Assembly (NCBI GenBank): GCA_964580575.1
Contig: CAZOLJ010000015.1
Span: 1,329 to 65,328, forward strand
Direction of reading: 5' to 3'
Length of the DNA stretch: 64,000 bases
DNA from: an uncultured Desulfobacteraceae bacterium
GTDB lineage: Bacteria > Desulfobacterota > DSM-4660 > Desulfatiglandales > HGW-15
This document shows, piece by piece, positions 33,897-61,665 of this stretch; within the stretch, counting starts at the first letter, position 1; every line of letters starts with the position of its first letter. The notes beneath the pieces are model-generated. The model was not told the DNA's origin, did no database searches, and saw only the letters and a program-made list of their open reading frames with translations. A program made the translations under genes and the position numbers.

Positions 33897-34730
33897 TTGA
33901 TGGCTAAGATCGGAATCGCTCTTGGCGGAGGCGGAGCCAAAGGATTGGCCCATATTCCCATTCTTGAAGTGTTTGAGGAATTGGGGATCCGACCGGTGTG
34001 TGTGGCGGGCACCAGTATCGGTGCCATTCTCGGGGTGCTTTACTGCTCAGGCATCCCGCCGAGCCAAACCCGTCGCGAACTGACGGAGGCCAGCCTTTCC
34101 GGGGAGGAGAGGTTGAGAGATCTCTTGGGCAAGCGTGAGATTCTCAAATGGCTCGACTTCGCTCGGTTTCAATTCGATGGAAGCGCGTTGTTGAGAAGTG
34201 ACAGGGTCATGGACATCCTCTTCAGGGATCTGGAACCCCGCCGATTCGAGGACCTTCACACGCCCTTGAAGGTCGTTGCCACGGATTTCTGGGCGCGTGA
34301 ACCCGTTGTCCTGGATCGGGGTGAACTCATCCCTGCGCTGAAAGCCTCCATGGCTGTGCCCGGGGTTTTCCCACCTGTGGAGATCGAGGGTCGTTTGTTG
34401 GTCGACGGCGGCATGGTCAATCCCATCCCTTATGATCTGCTGCCTCAGCAGTGTGACATCACCATCGCCGTTGATGTAGCCGGAAGGCGGACGTCTTCTT
34501 CGGACGCGACCCCCTCCATGGCAGACCTCGTTTTCAATGCTTTCCAGATCGCCGCGCGGAGCATCGTGCAGGAGAAATTGTGCCGCGTGAAGCCGGACAT
34601 CTATGTTGAGCCGGACATTGAGGACATCCGGCTCCTTGAATTTTACAAAGCGGCACAGGTGTTTCGTCAGGCTCAGCCTGCGAAAGAGCAGTTCAAGCGC
34701 GAACTGGAATTGAAGTTGGCGAGGTTTTGA
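33897..34730 (+). CDS. Patatin-like phospholipase
   Basis: GGGGAKG, GTSIG and DGG motifs. Confidence 0.92.
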   Translation: MMAKIGIALGGGGAKGLAHIPILEVFEELGIRPVCVAGTSIGAILGVLYCSGIPPSQTRRELTEASLSGEERLRDLLGKREILKWLDFARFQFDGSALLRSDRVMDILFRDLEPRRFEDLHTPLKVVATDFWAREPVVLDRGELIPALKASMAVPGVFPPVEIEGRLLVDGGMVNPIPYDLLPQQCDITIAVDVAGRRTSSSDATPSMADLVFNAFQIAARSIVQEKLCRVKPDIYVEPDIEDIRLLEFYKAAQVFRQAQPAKEQFKRELELKLARF

Positions 34731-34732
34731 CG

Positions 34733-37015
34733 ATGAAGCCCTTGGCTTTGGAAGAGAGTGAGGTTCTTTTCGGGTCGGATCCCCTTCAGGGGATCGTGGC
34801 GGTTGAACCTTCAGGGGACAAGACTATGCGCCTTTTTCTGAGGCACGGGAAAAAACGGGTCGCCCAGGAGGAGCCGTTCGTCTCCTTCATCCTGGTGGAG
34901 GATGAAAAGCTCATGAAGGGTTTCAAGAGCCCCTACAGGGCCGAACATCTCTCTGCAGCCAACGAATACAGGGTTCTCGCGCTCTTCGAGGGCTGGGAGG
35001 CGTGTCAGAAGGCGAGAGACCATCTTCAGAAACGAACCGGGGAGAGTGCCTCATCGCCTCAAGCGCCCTACCTCTATGTTGCCGATCCGGTCCACCAGTT
35101 TCTGCTTCTCACCGGCAAAACGCTTTTCAAAGGGCTTGCTTTCAAAGACCTTCACCGGATGGCTCTCGATATTGAAACCGCCTGCGCTCCCGGATTTGAA
35201 TTCTCCAACCCGGAAAGAGAGGAGGACAGGATTCTCTCCATCGCTCTGATGGACAATCAGGGCTATTGCGAAGTGATCTTCGGAAAGGACATGGAAGAGA
35301 AGAAAATGCTTGCCTCCCTTGGCGAGAGGATCACCCGGCTCGACCCGGACGTGATCGAGGGACACAACCTCTTCAACTTCGATCTCGAGTACCTCAGGGC
35401 AAGGGCGAAGCGGCACGGGGTCCCTTTGGCGTGGGGCAGGGACGGGAGTTCCCCGCGTATCCGGCGGTCCCGGTTCACGGTGGCGGAGAGAATTATCGAT
35501 TTCACACGCATGGACATTTTCGGCAGGCACGTGGTGGACACTCTGTTTTTGCTCCAGTACTACGATGTCACGGCGCGGGAAATGGAAAGCTATGGTCTCA
35601 AAGCGGCCGCTCAACACTTCGGCCTGGCAGAGGAAGGCCGCACCTACATCGAAGGGAAGGACATCCAGTGGTTCTTCGACCATGACCCGGAGTCGCTCAA
35701 AAAATACAACCTCGAAGACGCGAAGGAGACCCTCGCCCTGTCGGAATTGCTGGGGTATCCCTTTTTCCTGCAAGCCAGGATCTTCCCTTACTCCTACCAG
35801 AACATTTTTGTCCGCGGAAACGCCACCAAGATCGATGCCCTTTTCCTTAGAGAGTACTTGAAGCAGCGTGCTTCCGTCCCTAGGCCCAAAGGCGGCGGGG
35901 AGTTTGAAGGAGGCTACACCGATGTGTTTGTGACGGGGGTAGTGCATCATGTGGTCCACTGCGATGTGGCTTCCCTCTATCCCTCGATTATGCTTGCCTA
36001 CGGCCTCAAGCCTGCGGGCGATACCCTCAATGTCTTTCTTCCCCTGCTTCGTGATTTGAGAGAGTTCCGCCTTGAAGCAAAGAGTCGGGCCAAGGAGGCT
36101 GAAGCCCCCCATGAACACGACTACTACGAGGCGCTGCAGCAGACCTTCAAGATCCTGATCAATTCCTTTTACGGCTACCTCGGCACGGAGCTTCATCATT
36201 TCGCGGACCAGGAGCTGGCCGCTGAGGTGACCCGCAAGGGGAGGGAGATTATTCACAACATGATCGAGTGGCTCAGAAAAGAAGGCGCAACTCCCGTGGA
36301 GATCGACACAGACGGCATTTACTTCCTCCCACCGGAGCGCGTGAAAACGGAAAAGCAGGAGAAGGAACTGGTGGCACGCCTCAACGAGAGCCTGGCAGAA
36401 GGAATTGAAGTCAGCATGGACGGGCGGTACAAGGCCATGTTCTCCTACAAGAGGAAGAATTATGCCCTTCTCGACGAGAAGGGCGGCCTGATGATCAAAG
36501 GGAGCGCTCTTCGATCAAGGGGGATGGAGAAATACCTCAGGGAATTCCTCTCGGAAATGATTCGTTTGCTCCTGGAAGGCAGGGCAGGGGAGATCGAGGG
36601 GTTGCTGAAAAAGGCCATGGCCAGGCTCGAACACCATCAGTTCCCCATTTCCGAGTTAGCGAAAACAGAGGCCCTCAGTGAGTCGCCGGTCATTTACAAA
36701 GAGAAAGTGAAGCAGGGAAAACGAAACCCCGCAGCACTCTATGAACTGGCCCTTGCCTCGGGACGTTCGTACCGGGCCGGCGACCAGCTTTCCTATTACG
36801 TGACAGGGGAGACCAAGAAAGTGAAGGTCTACGAAAACAGCAAGCTGGCTTCCCAATATAATCCTGCGAGCCCCGATGAAAACGTTTCCTACTACCAGGA
36901 CAAGCTGCTCGCTTTCATCGAGAAGTTCAAGGAGTTCCTGCCCAAGGGGGAAACGTCGTTAACCAAGGAACCCAAGAAAGCGAAGAAGCCCCGCACTAAA
37001 GCCCAGGGCACGTGA
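34733..37015 (+). CDS. polB: Family B DNA polymerase with 3'-5' exonuclease domain
   Basis: Exo motifs DIET, HNLFNFD and YNLED; polymerase motifs DVASLYPS, KILINSFYG and IDTDG. Confidence 0.9.
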   Translation: MKPLALEESEVLFGSDPLQGIVAVEPSGDKTMRLFLRHGKKRVAQEEPFVSFILVEDEKLMKGFKSPYRAEHLSAANEYRVLALFEGWEACQKARDHLQKRTGESASSPQAPYLYVADPVHQFLLLTGKTLFKGLAFKDLHRMALDIETACAPGFEFSNPEREEDRILSIALMDNQGYCEVIFGKDMEEKKMLASLGERITRLDPDVIEGHNLFNFDLEYLRARAKRHGVPLAWGRDGSSPRIRRSRFTVAERIIDFTRMDIFGRHVVDTLFLLQYYDVTAREMESYGLKAAAQHFGLAEEGRTYIEGKDIQWFFDHDPESLKKYNLEDAKETLALSELLGYPFFLQARIFPYSYQNIFVRGNATKIDALFLREYLKQRASVPRPKGGGEFEGGYTDVFVTGVVHHVVHCDVASLYPSIMLAYGLKPAGDTLNVFLPLLRDLREFRLEAKSRAKEAEAPHEHDYYEALQQTFKILINSFYGYLGTELHHFADQELAAEVTRKGREIIHNMIEWLRKEGATPVEIDTDGIYFLPPERVKTEKQEKELVARLNESLAEGIEVSMDGRYKAMFSYKRKNYALLDEKGGLMIKGSALRSRGMEKYLREFLSEMIRLLLEGRAGEIEGLLKKAMARLEHHQFPISELAKTEALSESPVIYKEKVKQGKRNPAALYELALASGRSYRAGDQLSYYVTGETKKVKVYENSKLASQYNPASPDENVSYYQDKLLAFIEKFKEFLPKGETSLTKEPKKAKKPRTKAQGT

Positions 37016-54431: not shown

Positions 54432-55262
54432 ATGCTTCAAAAGTTCTGGATTCATGAGTTGACCCGGCCGGCCTTCGCGGAATGGCTGGAGAGCGAAAAA
54501 TCACCGGTCGTGATTATCGGCCTCGGCAGCGTGGAGCAGCACGGCCCTCACCTTCCCCTGGGCACGGACAGCCTGACGGCATGGGAACACGTTCACGAAG
54601 TCGCGAGGCGATCGAACAGCGTCTGCCTTCTCCCGTGCTTTCCGGGGTACTCTCCGCATCACATGGGTTTCCCGGGAACCATCACCTTCAGCGAAGGAAC
54701 CCTTGTTGCGGTGTTGATGGACACCATCGGAAGCCTTGCCCGTCACGGGATCAAGCATTTCCTGATCATGAACGTCCACGGGGGAAACACGAACATCGTC
54801 AATTTGGCCGCCCAGTTGGCAAAGAGAGAATTCAAAGTGATGGTGGCCGCTCCGACCGGTCCGAGTGACACCGAGCTCGGCAGGCTTCATGCGGACAAGC
54901 AGAAGAGACACTGGGATGTGCACAGCGGGCCCACGGAGACAGGGACCGCGCTTCATCTTTTCCCAGAGCTGGTGGAGATGGAAAGGATCGAGGGGTGGGA
55001 AGCGACGCTGAAACTCGATCCCAAGCTCATGGCGTTTTTGGATCCTGACCGAAAGGATTTCGAAATGGTGAACCAGGTTTTTCGGGCCTGCGTCGAGCCC
55101 GACACGGATGATTTCACGTCCAGCGGCGTCTGGGGAAAGAATGATCCCCGGGAGGCGGACCCTGAAGAGGCCAAGGCGCGGTTTGAAGAGAAGGTCACCT
55201 TCCTGGTGGAGTTCATCAAAGTCTGGAAGACCATTCCCATTCCTCCTGCCTTCGAAAATTAG
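54432..55262 (+). CDS. Creatininase / creatinine amidohydrolase family
   Basis: GSVEQHGPHLPLGTD, NVHGGN and HSGPTET. Confidence 0.9.
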   Translation: MLQKFWIHELTRPAFAEWLESEKSPVVIIGLGSVEQHGPHLPLGTDSLTAWEHVHEVARRSNSVCLLPCFPGYSPHHMGFPGTITFSEGTLVAVLMDTIGSLARHGIKHFLIMNVHGGNTNIVNLAAQLAKREFKVMVAAPTGPSDTELGRLHADKQKRHWDVHSGPTETGTALHLFPELVEMERIEGWEATLKLDPKLMAFLDPDRKDFEMVNQVFRACVEPDTDDFTSSGVWGKNDPREADPEEAKARFEEKVTFLVEFIKVWKTIPIPPAFEN

Positions 55263-55498
55263 CCGGTTGCTGAAAAGCGCCCATCTACGGCGTTGCCCAG
55301 CCGGAGGCTGACAAGCCTCATCCCTTCCCGTGTCAAGCACGGGACAGGCTTGTTGCGACGCACTGGACTGTACGACTCACTCCTCGGCCCGCCGGAGGCG
55401 GATAAGGATTGTTGGGCGCCTTGTTTCTGAGCGTTTTTGAGCAACCGGCGGAGAAGGACCTTTGCACCGTCCTGCTGAAAGGGAAAGACGTTAATCTT

Positions 55499-55990
55499 AT
55501 GAAGAAGCATCTTGCTGAAATCATCATCCCCAAAGAAGCAGCCGTGTTCTTTCTGGACGAGCACGGCTACTGGCGCCACAAGGAACAGGGAAAATTCGAG
55601 CACAGGAAGATCATCAATTACTTCCACTCCTGCATTCGAAAAGACGAAAACGGGTATCACCTCAGACAAAGGCTTGGCGATCGTGTTGAAAAAGTCTACT
55701 TCCACTACGAAGACACAGCGTTGTTTGTCATTGATGTGATCAAAGCGGAAGAGATTCACCTGTTGTTGAACACACAGAAAAAGATCAAGCTCAGACCCAA
55801 GAAGCTTTTCGTGATTGACGACAATCTCTATGTGAACTCGGGACAGCACAGGATCAAGTTCACGGATAACAGCCTTGTCCGACTCTGGGATCTGCTGAGT
55901 TACGAGGGAGATGACTATTTCATCACCGTGAAGGGGCAGCGCCACAAGATCAGGCAGATGGAGAAGGAAACCCTCGGATATGAAGTTTGA
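55499..55990 (+). CDS. Hypothetical protein (DUF1285-like)
   Basis: FFLDEHGYWRH...FEHRKIINYFHSCIRKD...VEKVY..YEDTALFV. Confidence 0.55.
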   Translation: MKKHLAEIIIPKEAAVFFLDEHGYWRHKEQGKFEHRKIINYFHSCIRKDENGYHLRQRLGDRVEKVYFHYEDTALFVIDVIKAEEIHLLLNTQKKIKLRPKKLFVIDDNLYVNSGQHRIKFTDNSLVRLWDLLSYEGDDYFITVKGQRHKIRQMEKETLGYEV

Positions 55991-56121
55991 TGGGTTCGTA
56001 AAAAGCCCCAAGGTCGTCACTCCCGCGGAGGCGGGAGTCCAGAAGAGTTTGCTAGGACTGGATTCCCGTCTTCGCGGGAATGACAGAAAAGGGCATTTCC
56101 TGACTTCTTGCGAAACCAGCA
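55988..56121. mobile_element. MITE-like element with an internal REP-type hairpin
   Basis: Ends tgatgggttcgtaaaaagcc / gacttcttgcgaaaccagca; internal gtcactcccgcggaggcgggagtccag...ctggattcccgtcttcgcgggaatgac. A lone related end lies near 37633-37652. Confidence 0.65.
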
Positions 56122-56150
56122 GCTTTCACCTCCCAAAAACGTCGCTGAAG

Positions 56151-57878
56151 ATGATGAACAGATTTCTGCTGCTCTGTACCTGTGTAATGCTTCTTTTTGC
56201 CTCGGGGTGCGCCCGCAGTTCACCCCTGATGAGCCCGATCTTGAAGAGATCTGATCCTTTCTCGGATAACATCAAGGACTACCAAAGCCTGACCCTCACG
56301 AAACCGGAACCAGTGAACTCCGGCGTTCGGCTGGTTGCGGGCGATGCCTTTACCCTGCTGCCCCGGGAGACACGCACCAGAGAAACCCTGAGGTACAGAA
56401 TAGGGGATGAACCCGCTGTGGCCGGCGGAAAGTATCACCACATTGCCGGGTCCTCGGGATATCTTTTTTTGAGCGTCGAGCCCTCCCAGCAAGTGAAGTC
56501 CTTCAAACCCATGGACGTGGAAATCCTCGTGTGGAAGAGAGCCGACTGGCTCCAGATCGCCGCCTTCTTCGAGACCATGAAAAAAGACCACCCGAACAGT
56601 CCTTCAGTGGCGGTAGCTCATCATGAGGCGAACCTTCGGTATGAAGCTGACGCGGCCTTCAGAAAGACCTCGGAACGCATAGAGGAGGCCAGGAAGCAGT
56701 GGGAGGAGGAGAAAGAGAAGACCGCGGTGCTTTCCAAGCAACTGGAGGACAAGGAGAAAAGGGAAAGAGCCTTGATGGGAAAACTCGCAGAGGGAGCCAA
56801 GATCCCGCCGGTGATCCTGGTGGTTTCGCCCAGAGAGGGGTGGGAAACCGAGGCGACCGCCGTGGCGCTCTCAGGAGTGATCCAGGATGACCAGGGGCTG
56901 GAGGCTCTGGAGATATCGATCAATGACGAAAAGCTCAAGACCTATTGGGTAGGAGTGGACCCCTCATCAGGGCAGGAGGCGGCAAAGCGGCTGGAATTCC
57001 AGGAAAGGGTCCCGCTTCGAACGGGAGAGAATCGAATCAAGATAAACGCTGTGGATGTGGAAGGTTTTTTTGCAGAAAAAATAATCAGCGTGCGAAGTGT
57101 CGAGAAGAAGAGGAATGTTTGGGCCGTGGTCATCGGCGTCAACAGCTATCCCAATGTGAGGCGGCTGAAGTACGCGGTGAACGATGCCATGGTCTTTTCC
57201 AATCATCTGGTAGAGTACAACCAGGTCCCGAAAGAGAATGTGGTCCTGCTCCTTGACGAGGAGGCCAATCTGACCCGTCTCAGAAGTGCCCTGGGCGTCT
57301 ATTTGAAGAATAAGGCTTCTAAGGAGGATATGGTCATCATTTATTTTGCAGGTCACGGCGCGACAGAGCGGGAGGCGACCAGCCCTGACGGGGACGGACT
57401 GGAAAAGTATCTACTGCCTTACGATGTTGACCCCAAGGAACTCTACGCGACGGCTCTGCCTATGGAAGAGATCTCCCGCCTCTTCAGCCGAATCCGATCG
57501 GATCGGCTGGTTTTCATTGTGGACACCTGCTACAGTGGGGCGAGCGGGGGCAGAACGATCAGCGTGGCGGACCTCAGGGCCGGCATCTCGGACGGCTTTC
57601 TGGACCGAATCACGGGCGGCAAAGGGAAGATCATCCTGACCGCAAGCGGTGCCAACGAAGTCAGCGCCGAGAGCGATGAACTTCAGCACGGCATCTTCAC
57701 CCACTTCCTCATCAAGGGGCTTCAGGGACAGGCCGATTCGGACGGCGACGGACTGATCACCGTGGATGAAGTGTACACCTACGTCTCCAAGCAGGTCCCT
57801 CAAGCGACCAACCAGGAGCAGCATCCGGTCAAGAAAGGGATCGTCGAGGGCCCCCTAATCCTGAGCATCGTGCGATGA
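56151..57878 (+). CDS. Caspase-family (peptidase C14) lipoprotein with coiled coil and Ig-like domain
   Basis: Lipobox FASGC; WAVVIGVNSY, YFAGHG (His) and DTCYSG (Cys). True start is likely 56151, after the MITE. Confidence 0.88.
   Translation: MMNRFLLLCTCVMLLFASGCARSSPLMSPILKRSDPFSDNIKDYQSLTLTKPEPVNSGVRLVAGDAFTLLPRETRTRETLRYRIGDEPAVAGGKYHHIAGSSGYLFLSVEPSQQVKSFKPMDVEILVWKRADWLQIAAFFETMKKDHPNSPSVAVAHHEANLRYEADAAFRKTSERIEEARKQWEEEKEKTAVLSKQLEDKEKRERALMGKLAEGAKIPPVILVVSPREGWETEATAVALSGVIQDDQGLEALEISINDEKLKTYWVGVDPSSGQEAAKRLEFQERVPLRTGENRIKINAVDVEGFFAEKIISVRSVEKKRNVWAVVIGVNSYPNVRRLKYAVNDAMVFSNHLVEYNQVPKENVVLLLDEEANLTRLRSALGVYLKNKASKEDMVIIYFAGHGATEREATSPDGDGLEKYLLPYDVDPKELYATALPMEEISRLFSRIRSDRLVFIVDTCYSGASGGRTISVADLRAGISDGFLDRITGGKGKIILTASGANEVSAESDELQHGIFTHFLIKGLQGQADSDGDGLITVDEVYTYVSKQVPQATNQEQHPVKKGIVEGPLILSIVR
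57807..57878 (+). repeat. 72-bp direct repeat, copy A (caspase 3' end)
   Basis: accaaccaggagcagcatccggtcaagaaagggatcgtcgagggccccctaatcctgagcatcgtgcgatga. Confidence 0.9.
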
Positions 57879-58068
57879 GCAGTCCGGATGCCGCTGTTTA
57901 AATGAATCTGACCAGAGGGACCGGTGAGACTTCTTTAGGGGTCATCTCTGAGCTACGCTCGCGCCATTCTTCTGATATCGATGGAGTTTGCATGGTGAAG
58001 GTCCTGGAGGCGGTGCGGCAGGGAAGGGCTAGTGCGGATTCGCGCCTTTGCGAGAGCGATCTTTTTTC

Positions 58069-58377
58069 TCAGGCGGCATGGAGTTCGGCAAGGGAAGTAA
58101 CTTCCCGCTCGATCCTACTGGAAAGCGATTCCTCTGCAACAGTGAGGTCGTAATGGGTTTGCAGATTCATCCAGCTCTGTGCGTCGGTTCCAAAAAATCG
58201 GGCCAGACGCAACGCCGTATCCGCGGTAATCGCCCTTTTTCCTGCGACGATTTCTCCGATTCGGCGTTGGGGCACGCCAATGGACTTGGCAAGCCGATAT
58301 TGAGTGATGTTCATGGGCTTGAGGAAATCCTCCAGCAAAATTTCACCGGGATGCACCGGCGGCATATTTCTCTTCAT
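58069..58377 (-). CDS. higA: HigA antitoxin (HTH, addiction module)
   Basis: PPVHPGEILLEDFL...ITADTALRLARFFGT..WMNLQ..YDL. Confidence 0.93.
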   Translation of the reverse strand: MKRNMPPVHPGEILLEDFLKPMNITQYRLAKSIGVPQRRIGEIVAGKRAITADTALRLARFFGTDAQSWMNLQTHYDLTVAEESLSSRIEREVTSLAELHAA

Positions 58378-58389
58378 CAGGGTACTCCT

Positions 58390-58674
58390 TCAATGGTAAT
58401 CGGTAATTTCAACATCATGGGCATGGCCGTCTTGCCAATGAAAGCAGGTCCTCCATCGGTCATTGATCCTGATGCTCCATTGGCCTTCTCTATCGCCGGA
58501 AAGCTTCTCCAGTCGGTTTCCCCCCGGCGGGACTCGCAGAAAGGTCAGTGTCGCTGCGCCGTGGATCTGTGTCAGCTTGCGCAAGGCCACCCTCTGTATT
58601 TCCTTCGGAAAGCGGGCGGCCAATCGGCCATGAAAGATTTTCTCTGTCTCTTTGCAGCGAAACGACTTGATCAT
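58390..58674 (-). CDS. higB: HigB toxin (RelE family)
   Basis: MIKSFRCKETEKIF...NRLEKL.GDREGQWSIRINDRWR; toxin-first gene order. Confidence 0.93.
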   Translation of the reverse strand: MIKSFRCKETEKIFHGRLAARFPKEIQRVALRKLTQIHGAATLTFLRVPPGGNRLEKLSGDREGQWSIRINDRWRTCFHWQDGHAHDVEITDYH

Positions 58675-58784
58675 CGCCAGATACTAACAAGCGGCATTAG
58701 TATTGTCAAGCATTAGTATCCCCCCGTTTTCTAGACAGCTGGCGGTCATTATGCATGCTTTGGACAACCTTTTGGCGACGATCC

Positions 58785-58856
58785 ACCAACCAGGAACAGC
58801 ATCCGGTCAAGACAGGGATCGTCGAAGGTCCCCTGGTCCTGAGCATCGTGCGATGA
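58785..58856 (+). repeat. 72-bp direct repeat, copy B
   Basis: accaaccaggaacagcatccggtcaagacagggatcgtcgaaggtcccctggtcctgagcatcgtgcgatga; 6 mismatches to copy A. Confidence 0.9.
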
Positions 58857-59014
58857 AGATCCTAAAACTGATTCTCGGCCTGATCGCGGCACCGGCAGTG
58901 GTCGTCTCCGGCTTTATTTGGGGATATGCACCTCTTCGAGACGGGCGACTGGAGCTGAAGAACACCAGGTTCACGCTGGATTTTCGTCTTGATTCTCCAA
59001 CGTTTTTCAATTAG
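58853..59014 (+). pseudogene. Short or truncated exported-protein start coupled to repeat B
   Basis: ATGA overlap; MKILKLILGLIAAPAVVVSGFIWGYAP... (signal-peptide-like) ends after 53 aa. Confidence 0.4.
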
Positions 59015-59145
59015 TCTAACAAAATATAGAAAGACCTTCCAACACCCGTTGCGATAGGAGAGCGGCGTCAAATTCAAGAATAGGGAAGGGTCAAGGGTGG
59101 ATTTGAGTTTGCGTACTCGGGGAACGAGAATGGGAGGATGGAACA

Positions 59146-59370
59146 ATGGAAAAAGTAACTGTTGATGTCAGTGAGGCGCAGACCCACCTTAAAGAGCTTG
59201 TAGATCGGGTCAACGCCGGAGCCCAGGTCATCCTCAGCGAAAATGAAAAACCGATCGCTCGGATTGTGCCTGTTTCGGAGAAAATTGCGGGACTGCACGC
59301 CGGTTCGATCTGGACAAGCGAAGACTTCGACGAAGCGCTGGCCGATACCTTTTGGACGCAAGGGAAATGA
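59146..59370 (+). CDS. Phd/YefM-type antitoxin
   Basis: VDVSEAQTHLKELVDRVNAG..VIL....PIARIVP. Confidence 0.85.
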   Translation: MEKVTVDVSEAQTHLKELVDRVNAGAQVILSENEKPIARIVPVSEKIAGLHAGSIWTSEDFDEALADTFWTQGK

Positions 59371-59753
59371 GACTCCTTCTGGACACTCACGTATTCATCT
59401 GGTGGGATAGTGAACCTGGGAAGCTATCGCCCCAGGCCTTGGGGTTGTGCCAGGATCCCAGCAATGAACTCATTCTGAGCGTAGTCAGCCTCTGGGAAAT
59501 CCAAATCAAGTCTCAAATGAATAAAGTCAGACTCCGCCTCCCGCTTTCCGACCTCGTTCAAGGCCAGCAAGAAACCAATGGTATGACCATTCTCCCTCTC
59601 ACCGCCTTCCACGTTTACGGCTTGGATGGCCTGCCTTCCTACCACAAGGATCCATTCGATCGAATGCTTATTGTCCAGGCAAGAGTCGAAAAGCCGAGTC
59701 TTGTGAGTAGCGATGGGATAAGCAGGAGATATCCGATAGAGGTTGTCTGGTAG
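59367..59753 (+). CDS. vapC: VapC/PIN toxin
   Basis: LLLDTHVFIWW, SVVSLWEI and HKDPFDRMLIVQA; ATGA coupling with the antitoxin. Confidence 0.9.
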   Translation: MRLLLDTHVFIWWDSEPGKLSPQALGLCQDPSNELILSVVSLWEIQIKSQMNKVRLRLPLSDLVQGQQETNGMTILPLTAFHVYGLDGLPSYHKDPFDRMLIVQARVEKPSLVSSDGISRRYPIEVVW

Positions 59754-59800
59754 CCCGAACCATTTCGCCGTCGAGACGTCGCCCGGAAGCTTTTAAATAA

Positions 59801-59932
59801 GGTCATCCTTCAGGGACACGGTTCAATGCGTGGAAGAAAATCTCCGAGAAATACTTGAGAGTCACGTATTTCGAGGCAGAAGAGGAAACGATTGTTTTGA
59901 CCGCCGTAAAGAGGAAAAAGGGATGGAGGTGA
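59801..59932 (+). pseudogene. 3' fragment of a DUF4258-like toxin gene
   Basis: Manual frame after an in-frame TAA: GTRFNAWKKISEKYLRVTYFEAEEETIVLTAVKRKKGWR*, directly upstream of the DUF2283-like gene. Confidence 0.55.
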
Positions 59933-59938
59933 TCAGAA

Positions 59939-60157
59939 TTGAGAATTGAATATGATAAGGATGCGGACGCCTTGTATATCCAGCTAAGAGAAGCGTACGT
60001 GGAAGACAATGTTGACATTGAAGAAGCCATCACAGTGGACCTTGATGAAAACAGGCATGTCGTGGGGATTGAAATCCTGGATGCCAGCAGGAAACTTTCT
60101 CTTAGCGATATGGTCAACATTTCCATCGAGAATCTCCCTCTCGAAAACGTTGTCTAG
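59939..60157 (+). CDS. DUF2283-like putative antitoxin
   Basis: MRIEYDKDADALYIQL...VDLDENRHVVGIEILDAS. Confidence 0.85.
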   Translation: MRIEYDKDADALYIQLREAYVEDNVDIEEAITVDLDENRHVVGIEILDASRKLSLSDMVNISIENLPLENVV

Positions 60158-60177
60158 GGTACGAGAACCGCGGACTG

Positions 60178-61665
60178 TTACGATTCTTTGGCGCGGGTCA
60201 GCTTGGCGATTTTGCGGAAATGATGGCCGTAAATCGCGAAGGTCACCGAGAGCGGTAATAACCGGGGCCGGCGAAAAAAAGTCCACAACAGGATCTTCCA
60301 GTACTGGAATCGCTCTCTGCCGAGAATCCCCAGGCGGATGATGGAACGAAAGAATCCCACCAGAGCGTGAAAATTCATGGGGGTTGTGATCTTCGGCGCT
60401 TTGTACTCCCTGAGAAAGGTCATGGCCCGCTTATAATAGGGCTTGGGCGAATAAATATGCTGAAGGATACTTCGGTATCCTTCACGCAACGCAGCGTTGC
60501 CCATCTTGGAAAGGATGTTGGTTGAGCCGTCCACGTTGTCTCCGGACATAAGGCCGATCAGTCGGCCCTCCCGTCTCATGCGCTCATAGAGTTTGGTCCC
60601 CGGGGGAGCGTTCAACAGTCCGACCATGGCCGTCACGATTCCGCTTTTCTGGATGAACTCGATCTGCCGCTGAAAGATGGAGGGGGTGTCGTTGTCGAAT
60701 CCTACAATGAAGCCTCCCTGCACTTGAAGCCCGGCCCGCTGCATAAGCTTCACGCTCTCGATCAGGTCCCGGTTCTTGTTCTGCTGTTTGTTGCACTCCG
60801 CGAGACTCTCTTCACTGGGCGTTTCGATGCCGATGAAGACCGAGTCAAACCCGGCCTTGACCATCATCTCCATGAGAATTTGGTCATCGGCCAGATTGAC
60901 CGAGGCTTCTGTGTTGAAGGGGATCCCTCTCTTCCCTTGTTGCCACTGAATGAGAGCAGGAAGAAGGTGGGCCTTGAGATAGGCCTTGTTCCCTATAAAG
61001 TTGTCGTCCACAAAAAACACAGGGCCCCGCCAGCCCAGATTGTAAACCCCGTCCAGTTCCGTAATAATCTGTTCAGCCGTTTTGGTGCGCGACCGGTGCC
61101 CGAACAATGCGGTCACGTTGCAGAACTCACAGTTGAAAGGACACCCCCGCGAAAACTGGAGGCTCATGGAAGCGTAGTGTTTCAAATTCATCAACTCCCA
61201 CATGGGAGCAGACGTTTCTTGAATATCACAAAAATCCGATGTCTCGTAGAGGGGCTTAGCACAACCCTTTTGCATGTCTTCCAGAAAAGGCGGAAGGGTC
61301 AATTCAGCTTCATTGAGCACGAAGTGGTCCACCTCAGCGAACTGACCGTGTTCGCTGGTGAAGAGCGGTCCTCCTGCGATGATTTTGAGGCCCGCACGCT
61401 TGCAGCGGGCAATGACCTCGCGCGCCGATTCTCGTTGCACCACCATGGCGCTGATGAAGGCGCAATCCGCCCAGGCCAGATCTTCTTCAGTGAGCTTGGC
61501 CACATTCAGATCCACCAACTTCAAGGACCATTCCTTGGGCAGCATCGAGGCGATGGTCAATAAGCCCAGCGGAGGAAATGCCGCTTTCTTGTGAATGAAT
61601 TTCAGCGCGTGCTTGAAGCTCCAGAAGGTGTCGGGGTACTGCGGATAAATCAGAAGGGTTCGCAT
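60178..61665 (-). CDS. B12-binding domain radical SAM protein (DUF4070-like C-terminus)
   Basis: PPLGLLTIA, IAGGP, SRGCPFNCEFC, FFVDDNF and VFIGIET. Confidence 0.9.
   Translation of the reverse strand: MRTLLIYPQYPDTFWSFKHALKFIHKKAAFPPLGLLTIASMLPKEWSLKLVDLNVAKLTEEDLAWADCAFISAMVVQRESAREVIARCKRAGLKIIAGGPLFTSEHGQFAEVDHFVLNEAELTLPPFLEDMQKGCAKPLYETSDFCDIQETSAPMWELMNLKHYASMSLQFSRGCPFNCEFCNVTALFGHRSRTKTAEQIITELDGVYNLGWRGPVFFVDDNFIGNKAYLKAHLLPALIQWQQGKRGIPFNTEASVNLADDQILMEMMVKAGFDSVFIGIETPSEESLAECNKQQNKNRDLIESVKLMQRAGLQVQGGFIVGFDNDTPSIFQRQIEFIQKSGIVTAMVGLLNAPPGTKLYERMRREGRLIGLMSGDNVDGSTNILSKMGNAALREGYRSILQHIYSPKPYYKRAMTFLREYKAPKITTPMNFHALVGFFRSIIRLGILGRERFQYWKILLWTFFRRPRLLPLSVTFAIYGHHFRKIAKLTRAKES

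Follow-up and report, generated by a model that had tools for sequence, protein, structure and literature searches.

How does a toxin-antitoxin (TA) gene pair come to lie between two copies of the end of a host gene, with no recombinase gene beside it? The question is raised by a locus in 64,000 nt of DNA (hereafter the window) from an uncultured Desulfobacteraceae bacterium (assembly GCA_964580575.1, contig CAZOLJ010000015.1, positions 1,329-65,328 of the forward strand), in which a higBA module is bracketed by direct repeats of the 3' end of a gene for a caspase-like protease. The original prediction had taken these repeats as the trace of an attP-like element that integrated into the caspase gene with its own replacement C-terminus and was later reduced to its addiction module. 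The analysis reported here favours, with modest confidence, another course: the arrangement would be due to host-driven, integrase-independent homologous recombination at the conserved caspase 3' end. The interval between the caspase gene and a gene for a B12-binding radical SAM protein is a hotspot of gain, loss and exchange of small TA modules. Beyond L006 and L007, relatives of the locus were recovered by homology to HigB and HigA and by a scan for the cassette operator, and come only from uncultured deltaproteobacterial sources; all relatives are metagenome contigs or metagenome-assembled genomes (MAGs), with sequencing reads represented by assembled Logan contigs. L-numbers are the locus labels of these relatives and X-numbers denote sequencing runs.

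The direct repeat and the higBA cassette

A direct-repeat search revealed one 72-nt direct repeat, at 57807-57878 (copy A) and 58785-58856 (copy B), the copies being 92% identical and 978 nt apart. The repeat sequence includes ACCAACCAGGARCAGCAYCCGGTCAAGA..., and its 29-nt core has no occurrence in the 64-kb window other than these two, where chance alone would give 0. Copy A (+ strand) constitutes the functional last 23 codons and the stop codon of the caspase gene and is mosaic between lineages, copy B (+ strand) is a non-functional caspase 3' end that is fused through an ATGA to the start of a hydrolase gene, as comparison with the relative L006 revealed. The repeat search confirmed the six differences in 72 positions that had been predicted for the repeats bracketing higBA, of which four are synonymous (GAG>GAA twice, GGC>GGT and CTA>CTG) and two non-synonymous (AAA>ACA, K>T; ATC>GTC, I>V). 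The ATGA of copy B opens a 53-aa open reading frame (ORF; 58853-59014), whereas that of copy A opens just 8 codons.

Between the copies, a non-coding spacer (57879-58068) fills the distance from the caspase stop to that of higA; in the group formed by the window, L024, L028 and L029 the exchanged cassette begins with this spacer on the left, and an 83-aa ORF within the spacer has no Pfam match. It is followed by the antitoxin gene higA (58069-58377, - strand; HTH_3, PF01381), which matches the equivalog TIGR02607 antidote_HigA with 114.8 bits at a cut-off of 47.7, and by the toxin gene higB of the RelE/ParE superfamily (58390-58674, - strand), which matches PF05015 over residues 2-91 of 91 (E 3e-13, 50.4 bits, cut-off 27) and for whose product 5324 homologues were found. 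In the gene order of HigBA modules, higB lies upstream of higA at a distance of 12 nt and both form one operon with its own promoter. A promoter scan placed this higB promoter, TTGACA-17-TAGTAT (58709 to 58681, - strand), in a segment (58681-58722) in which two direct GCATTAGTAT repeats (58694-58703 and 58710-58719) flank the -35 element, and these repeats are likely the HigA operator. The stretch from the promoter to copy B is a filler, U, of ~61 nt (58723-58784) without significant similarity to the caspase gene. HigBA is most likely an ordinary type II module, judged by its families and gene order, in which HigB would be a ribosome-dependent mRNA nuclease checked by HigA; HigA would also repress the TTGACA-17-TAGTAT promoter, and the addiction effect would favour keeping the insert.

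The duplication around higBA is genuine and no assembly artefact. Five public assemblies (ENA, JGI, Logan) independently carry the identical arrangement with 0 to 3 base differences over up to 7 kb compared, so that a one-off misassembly, the refutation that the original prediction had allowed for, does not apply. The region from A through higBA to B is spanned by a single 12.5-kb contig at even depth, and the layout of caspase end, higBA and caspase end recurs in many diverged lineages.

Empty sites and related architectures

In two GTDB species representatives, L006 and L007, the caspase protein is 92-93% identical to that of the window. The caspase end of L006 is continued, across the same CGATGA overlap, by MKILKIMLGL..., the start of a 331-aa alpha/beta hydrolase (PF00561), and L007 shows the order caspase, hydrolase, radical SAM and no TA genes. 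The 72-nt repeat is single-copy in L006, in L007 and at the caspase gene of L030. The junction in L006 shows that copy B is the caspase end proper to the ancestral caspase-hydrolase junction. It had been predicted that the ATGA of copy B reflects an original operon and that relatives without higBA would join the B-type end directly to MKILK; both expectations were borne out by L006, and the caspase gene of L030 runs straight into the truncated hydrolase remnant that the window also has.

About a dozen further arrangements were recovered. Probably the fullest form of the insert (~1.45 kb) is that of L039, where the caspase gene with copy A, the spacer, higA and higB are followed by an intact 77-aa DUF4258-like gene, DUF2283, a 29-nt spacer and copy B, and which thus contains two TA operons. 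In L028, L025, L040, L042 and L043, all that is left of DUF2283 ahead of B is its last ~30 nt. In L014-L022 and L027, copy B comes immediately after the upstream region of higB, begins ~15 nt farther upstream, is interrupted by an in-frame TAG and lacks its last ~24 nt, and the hydrolase gene is intact; the clean 72-nt repeat that had been described therefore holds for the window and not for the L014 type. L029, L034, L041 and L024 lack both B and the hydrolase gene; in L029, L034 and L041 the filler U passes into a truncated ORF, the end of which resembles that of the DUF4258-like partner of DUF2283. In L035 and L038 the caspase gene is reduced to its last ~140 nt and higA, higB, filler and B are kept beside the radical SAM gene. 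The junction left of B varies between the ~61-nt filler (window, L030, L035), the DUF2283 remnant with spacer (others) and 15 extra caspase bases (L014 type), and successive deletions may have given these different junction types.

L030 has, besides its empty site, a unit 2.2 kb downstream, past a gene for a PAS histidine kinase, that consists of filler (corresponding to 58727-58784), repeat copy, spacer, higA and promoter, with higB deleted. This unit is a circular permutation of that of the window, and both junctions flanking its repeat copy were confirmed by error-free contigs of independent runs. One 554-nt contig from run X23 joins the downstream repeat copy of L030 back to the caspase's own copy (3920 to 1538), passing through a 31-nt stretch that is identical in both; it may derive from a circle or tandem of the segment containing hydrolase remnant, kinase and filler, and an assembly artefact at k=31 is more likely. 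In the window region, no excision or empty-site joints were found among the Logan contigs. A contig from run X4 was considered as a B-less variant joined to the DUF2283 end and was rejected, as B follows that remnant in L028 and L040.

Position 58722 (58722/58723), at the outer edge of the promoter segment, is a recurrent rearrangement breakpoint, found in L026, L030 and L039. In L026 (1-700), unrelated DNA adjoins the higB start and promoter (58667-58722) and contains an ORF that was named IS4-like transposase by eye, from its translation alone.

The link between caspase and TA genes appears to be positional and not functional, since the cassette persists where the caspase gene is deleted (L035, L038) and lies elsewhere in L030; the earlier suggestion of a caspase guarded by a TA module is unsupported.

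Age of higBA relative to its flanks

The synonymous divergence (dS) from the window is far lower in higBA than in its flanks. L014 aside, dS values range from 0.0 to 0.15 for higBA and from 0.3 to 1.6 for the flanking genes. Against L029, dS is 0.84 for the caspase and 0.69 for the radical SAM gene, but 0.028 for higA and 0.00 for higB (2 of 136 synonymous sites). The corresponding values for caspase, higA and higB are 0.78, 0.03 and 0.05 in L028, 0.34, 0.04 and 0.02 in L024, and 1.04, 0.15 and 0.10 in L025. In L035, where the flanks are represented by the radical SAM (1.56), acyl-CoA dehydrogenase (1.04) and HAD (0.66) genes, higA and higB diverge by 0.056 and 0.113. L014, with 0.32 for the caspase, 0.24 for higA and 0.20 for higB, is compatible with co-divergence. 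The non-coding spacer (57879-58068) is 95-96% identical in L024, L028 and L029, whose caspase 3' part is 84-93% identical, and 74-77% identical in L025 and L014 (77% in L014).

Compared column by column, identity switches on the left at 57876-57889, i.e., within ~13 nt at the caspase stop codon, in L024, L028 and L029, and at about 58010 in L025 and L014; on the right it switches at 58771-58783. As higBA is far younger than its flanks and has sharp edges, these comparisons show that the higBA unit is a cassette exchanged horizontally between diverged lineages. The exchanged higBA always lies beside a copy of the caspase end, and this copy is the caspase gene's own 3' end in all cases except L030.

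Evolution of the repeat copies

The states private to the non-functional copies (n = 5) comprise six non-synonymous changes or stop codons, two synonymous changes and one deletion, which is a pattern of neutral decay. All remaining A/B differences are found in functional caspase alleles of other lineages; these are the four synonymous changes and the I>V exchange in the window, nine synonymous changes in L025 and six in L028. The original prediction held that B diverged like coding sequence under selection as a caspase C-terminus. The coding-like divergence stands, and the reason for it is that A and B represent different functional alleles, with B decaying slightly on top.

Within single loci the copies resemble each other in private features: in L035, both A and B carry a private K>Q exchange and a private 6-nt deletion. 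L034 differs from L029 and L041, which are of the same lineage with the same flanks, by a 5-nt patch within A, and L040 has a mosaic spacer start. These patches are short gene conversion tracts and show that the copies interact. That A and B are alternative functional alleles argues for one copy of foreign origin, a signal that conversion appears to have blurred, and the 72 nt offer too few sites to tell which of the two it is.

Origin of the arrangement

In the preferred explanation, the 72-nt repeat would be a scar left where recombination placed two alternative haplotypes in tandem. The first, TA-bearing haplotype would have consisted of the caspase end A, higBA and originally also the pair of DUF4258-like and DUF2283 genes, the second would be the ancestral caspase-hydrolase operon, whose caspase end would survive as copy B. 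In a Campbell-type topology, incoming DNA with a copy of the caspase 3' end beside its TA genes would have recombined with the resident caspase 3' end, and this insertion would have rebuilt an intact caspase gene (A) and left a dead copy of its end (B) attached to the hydrolase gene downstream. The last ~70 nt of the caspase gene are far more conserved than the remainder of the gene, and this stretch may have served as homology arm for the recombination machinery of the host. The same arms would later have allowed swaps of higBA alleles between diverged lineages, and mutual conversion of A and B through them would keep B coding-like. The same process would cover the losses and the permuted copy in L030, with L006 and L007 having either never had the insert or lost it. 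A dependence on RecA, a circular or linear intermediate and a certain order of events would go with this picture; the product would be the same whether the intermediate was circular or was a linear fragment with one illegitimate end.

No integrase or recombinase gene was found between the repeats, among the 37 Pfam-scanned ORFs of the window or in the gene tables of the related contigs, as the original prediction had stated for this locus. The gene tables of ~13 architectures likewise contain no integrase or transposase domain at the site, and the larger integrase-bearing islands that had been proposed as a check were not found at the caspase end in any of them. It is the combination of a missing recombinase with a long, imperfect, mosaic and mutually converting repeat that favours homologous recombination by the host, and the varying left junction of B together with the mosaic patches fits this better than a fixed site-specific crossover. 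Several points weigh against this explanation. In the window, A and B share no perfect match of more than 20 nt, a short stretch for an exchange mediated by RecA. In L024, L028 and L029 the young segment begins on its left at the stop codon or directly beside it, as is also expected of a site-specific system, and the repeat ends exactly at the stop codon, as is typical where an inserted element has to restore its target gene. Convincing gene-end repeats are missing from two more distant higBA loci (L031, L032), so bracketing by gene ends is not general to the HigBA family. Finally, single contigs among the metagenomic relatives may be chimeric, and the analysis covered assembled contigs only.

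The foremost alternative, considered somewhat unlikely, is that of a decayed site-specific element, i.e., a remnant, in the manner of a cis-mobilizable element (CIME), of an integrative and conjugative element (ICE), an integrative and mobilizable element (IME) or a prophage. The caspase 3' end would be its attB, and A and B would be attL and attR; the element would have carried a replacement C-terminus of its own, as e14 does at icd, would have lost its integrase and all else but its addiction modules, and would now be moved only in trans by a related integrase. Much of the layout agrees with this: the direct repeats flank the insert, are single-copy in the empty sites of relatives, restore the target gene and end exactly at its stop codon, as in integrative elements, and an attL/attR-like structure without integration and transfer genes fits the layout of CIMEs, the repeats being the putative att sites. 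The fullest insert (L039) holds two TA operons only, as addiction-driven decay would leave, the cassette edges are sharp at the repeats and the cassette moved between diverged hosts, the junction in L030 is permuted in an attP-like manner, and both CIMEs and the pair of icd and icdC at e14 are documented precedents. On the other side, neither an integrase nor an excisionase nor any other mobility gene was found at or near the site in ~13 architectures or in the scanned 64-kb window, and no larger version of the element was found. An autonomous ICE or IME using the caspase end was not found in the genome, metagenome and viral collections searched, a search that was non-exhaustive; the promoter/operator sequence of the cassette had no match in the viral contigs scanned, and inspection of the junctions, by eye only, gave nothing convincing in the way of Xer/dif-like or attC-like sites. 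A single fixed crossover would fit the left edge at the stop codon in three comparisons, yet the mosaic patches, the gene conversion and the varying left junction of B argue against it. Of the attP-like element reduced to its addiction module that had been predicted, the operon-like junction of B with the MKILK ORF and the lack of an integrase held, and the mosaic repeat and the varying junction fit homologous recombination better.

Another possibility, rather unlikely in our estimation, is that higBA resides in a minimal, recombinase-less selfish element that would use the 3' end of its target gene as a portable homology arm and home to the same gene in genomes that differ by a dS of about 1. 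Such an element would enter and leave by homologous recombination of the host through a circle of ~1 kb, and exchange with functional alleles would keep its arm coding-like.

A single ancient, illegitimate insertion with self-duplication of the target and nothing but vertical inheritance since, constraint being the cause of the low higBA divergence, is improbable. Addiction modules of the restriction-modification (RM) type are known to lie alone between target duplications of 46-420 bp, some of which overlap gene 3' ends. At this site, too, an addiction gene pair lies alone on less than 20 kb without a mobility gene, between repeats that exceed 30 bp and are single-copy without the insert. L014, with its similar dS values for caspase, higA and higB and its 77% identical spacer, fits co-divergence. 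In L029, L028, L025, L024 and L035, however, dS of higBA is 10 to 30 times below that of the flanks, and this contrast largely refutes the vertical-only part. The non-coding spacer, 95-96% identical where the dS of the flank is 0.7-0.8, is nothing that constraint on proteins can explain. Moreover, the copies of a self-duplication start out identical, yet most A/B differences are allelic states.

That B is the leftover of a deleted tandem caspase paralog, with higBA once lying between two full genes, is very improbable. B of the L014 type does extend ~15 nt upstream in register with the caspase gene, but no relative with two full caspase genes was found, so that this earlier proposal was not upheld; apart from this 15-nt stretch, no lineage shows significant caspase similarity in the DNA upstream of B (alignments were no better than those of shuffled sequences), and in relatives without the insert the single caspase gene is fused to the hydrolase gene just as B is. 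A strain merge duplicating the caspase end, conceivable in metagenomic data and given the X23 contig that jumps between the repeat copies of L030 through their shared 31 nt, is of practically negligible probability in view of five assemblies, many diverged lineages and one even-depth 12.5-kb contig.

The caspase gene and the hydrolase to radical SAM zone

The caspase ORF (55980-57878, + strand) encodes 632 aa with a Peptidase_C14 match (Pfam PF00656) at residues 381-617; against the NCBIfam caspase domain NF047832 its score is below the cut-off. Homologues are encoded by 585-aa genes and align only from residue ~55 of the window ORF, and the true start lies probably at ~56148, with a predicted lipoprotein-type signal MMNRFLLLCTCVMLLFASGC. 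The 632-aa ORF begins within a short dispersed repeat element, which occurs in the window at 55262-55298, 55353-55451 and 55978-56113 and translates as ...VTPAEAGVQ...LDSRLRGNDRKG. The same element is found at unrelated places in L006 (8062-8192 and 19490-19533), L007 (239-365), L013 and at the end of L025.

To the right of copy B, homology of the window to L006 and L007 ends at 58986/7 and restarts at 60178, the stop of the radical SAM gene. This gene (60178-61665, - strand; PF02310, PF04055, PF13282) is present in all long relatives and is the conserved right flank of the variable zone. From these homology breaks it follows that the MKILK ORF of the window (58853-59014, + strand, 53 aa) represents the first 46 codons of the hydrolase gene with 7 unrelated codons attached (tblastn match of the L006 hydrolase at 58853-58990), and that the remainder was replaced by phd-vapC and a DUF2283 module. 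The replacing segment (58987-60177, + strand) contains phd (59146-59370; PF02604), vapC/PIN (59352-59753; PF01850), a short toxin-like remnant (about 59797-59932) and DUF2283 (59939-60157; PF10049). The remnant before DUF2283 is the C-terminal end of its partner (...YLRVTYFEAEEETIVLTAVKRKKGWR) with an in-frame stop upstream, and L039 (reverse complement, about 950-1410) keeps this 77-aa partner intact (MKPIRYTRHARHRMRWRRISEDEV...). The short ORF upstream of DUF2283 in the window has no Pfam match; its position and the intact counterpart in L039 suggest a DUF4258-like remnant.

The hydrolase gene normally overlaps the caspase stop through ATGA. Where the TA insert separates the two, it is intact in L027 (1182-2156), split over two frames in L028 (1426-2372) and truncated to 46 codons in the window (58853-59014), and the remnant in L030 (1594-1700) is shorter than that of the window, which suggests that the hydrolase gene decays once its coupling to the caspase gene is lost. 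The leader upstream of phd-vapC in the window (59014-59145) is homologous to L030 1700-1815, the leader of a gene for a 674-aa PAS-histidine kinase-receiver protein, so that different cargo was joined to the same upstream sequence and to the same truncation point of the hydrolase gene (58987). The zone is variable beyond its TA content: L006 (12902-14099, from hydrolase to radical SAM) contains a 224-aa ORF with a weak alkaline-phosphatase match and a fragment of a LipB/LplA catalytic domain, and L039 also holds an LplA-B gene and a gene for a transporter of the major facilitator superfamily (MFS) there.

For the window as a whole, about 53 ORFs of at least 120 aa were listed and 37 non-overlapping ORFs were used for the Pfam scan. 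At 33897-37012, a gene for a patatin-like phospholipase is directly followed by one for a family-B DNA polymerase (PF00136, PF03104). An Rfam scan of 55000-61000 gave no matches.

Comparison with known systems

Chromosomal integrons and superintegrons contain higBA and other TA cassettes that have their own promoter and are mobile within a variable array. The caspase site differs from these in that no IntI is found, that a segment of a host gene forms the flanking repeat and that no convincing attC-type sites were seen by eye.

The geometry of the site is the same as that of e14 and phage 21 at icd, as is the coding-like divergence of the two ends. In Escherichia coli K-12, e14 lies in the 3' end of icd, keeps this gene intact by supplying an alternative 3' end and leaves a downstream C-terminal pseudogene, icdC; the two ends differ mainly by synonymous or conservative changes and recombination gives a chimeric functional gene (PMC13626634). 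However, both e14 and phage 21 have a recombinase of their own, and e14 is a prophage of ~15 kb with its own site-specific recombination system and SOS-induced excision, whereas here the insert is made up of TA genes without a recombinase and measures 0.9 kb, or as much as ~1.45 kb in L039, and the repeat of the caspase end shows mosaic conversion tracts, unlike e14.

CIMEs are integrated units that keep attL and attR and have lost their integration and transfer genes (PMC5704250). With those of streptococci, which derive from decayed ICEs and IMEs, the caspase site shares the absence of mobility genes and, with its repeats as putative att sites, would also share the retained ends. The site differs from CIMEs in its long, imperfect and mosaic arms, and neither a parental ICE or IME nor a related integrase nor accretion with a functional element was found.

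A further precedent is the way in which RM systems insert with a long target duplication, where repeats of 46-420 bp flank the insert without mobility genes; some of these duplications overlap gene 3' ends, and a genome without the insert has the sequence in one copy (Nobusato et al., 2000; Furuta et al., 2010; PMC2853133). The likeness lies in a lone addiction-type gene pair between long direct repeats. The caspase site differs in that the cargo is a TA module, that the repeats represent different functional alleles and not a fresh self-duplication, and that the cargo is exchanged among diverged lineages. What is novel here is thus the TA cargo, its exchange across hosts whose dS reaches ~1-1.5, and a series of intermediates, about a dozen architectures among which are an empty site, a permuted copy, relics in decay and a target gene that was deleted. 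The site is a natural example of TA genes spreading between diverged chromosomes without a mobility gene. For annotation, it is a warning that short pseudo-C-termini beside TA pairs are recombination scars and that the adjacency of caspase and TA genes implies no functional link. If the homology-arm mechanism is true, it would explain why TA genes pile up at particular intergenic hotspots, and the behaviour of long target duplication, so far described for RM systems, would extend to TA systems.

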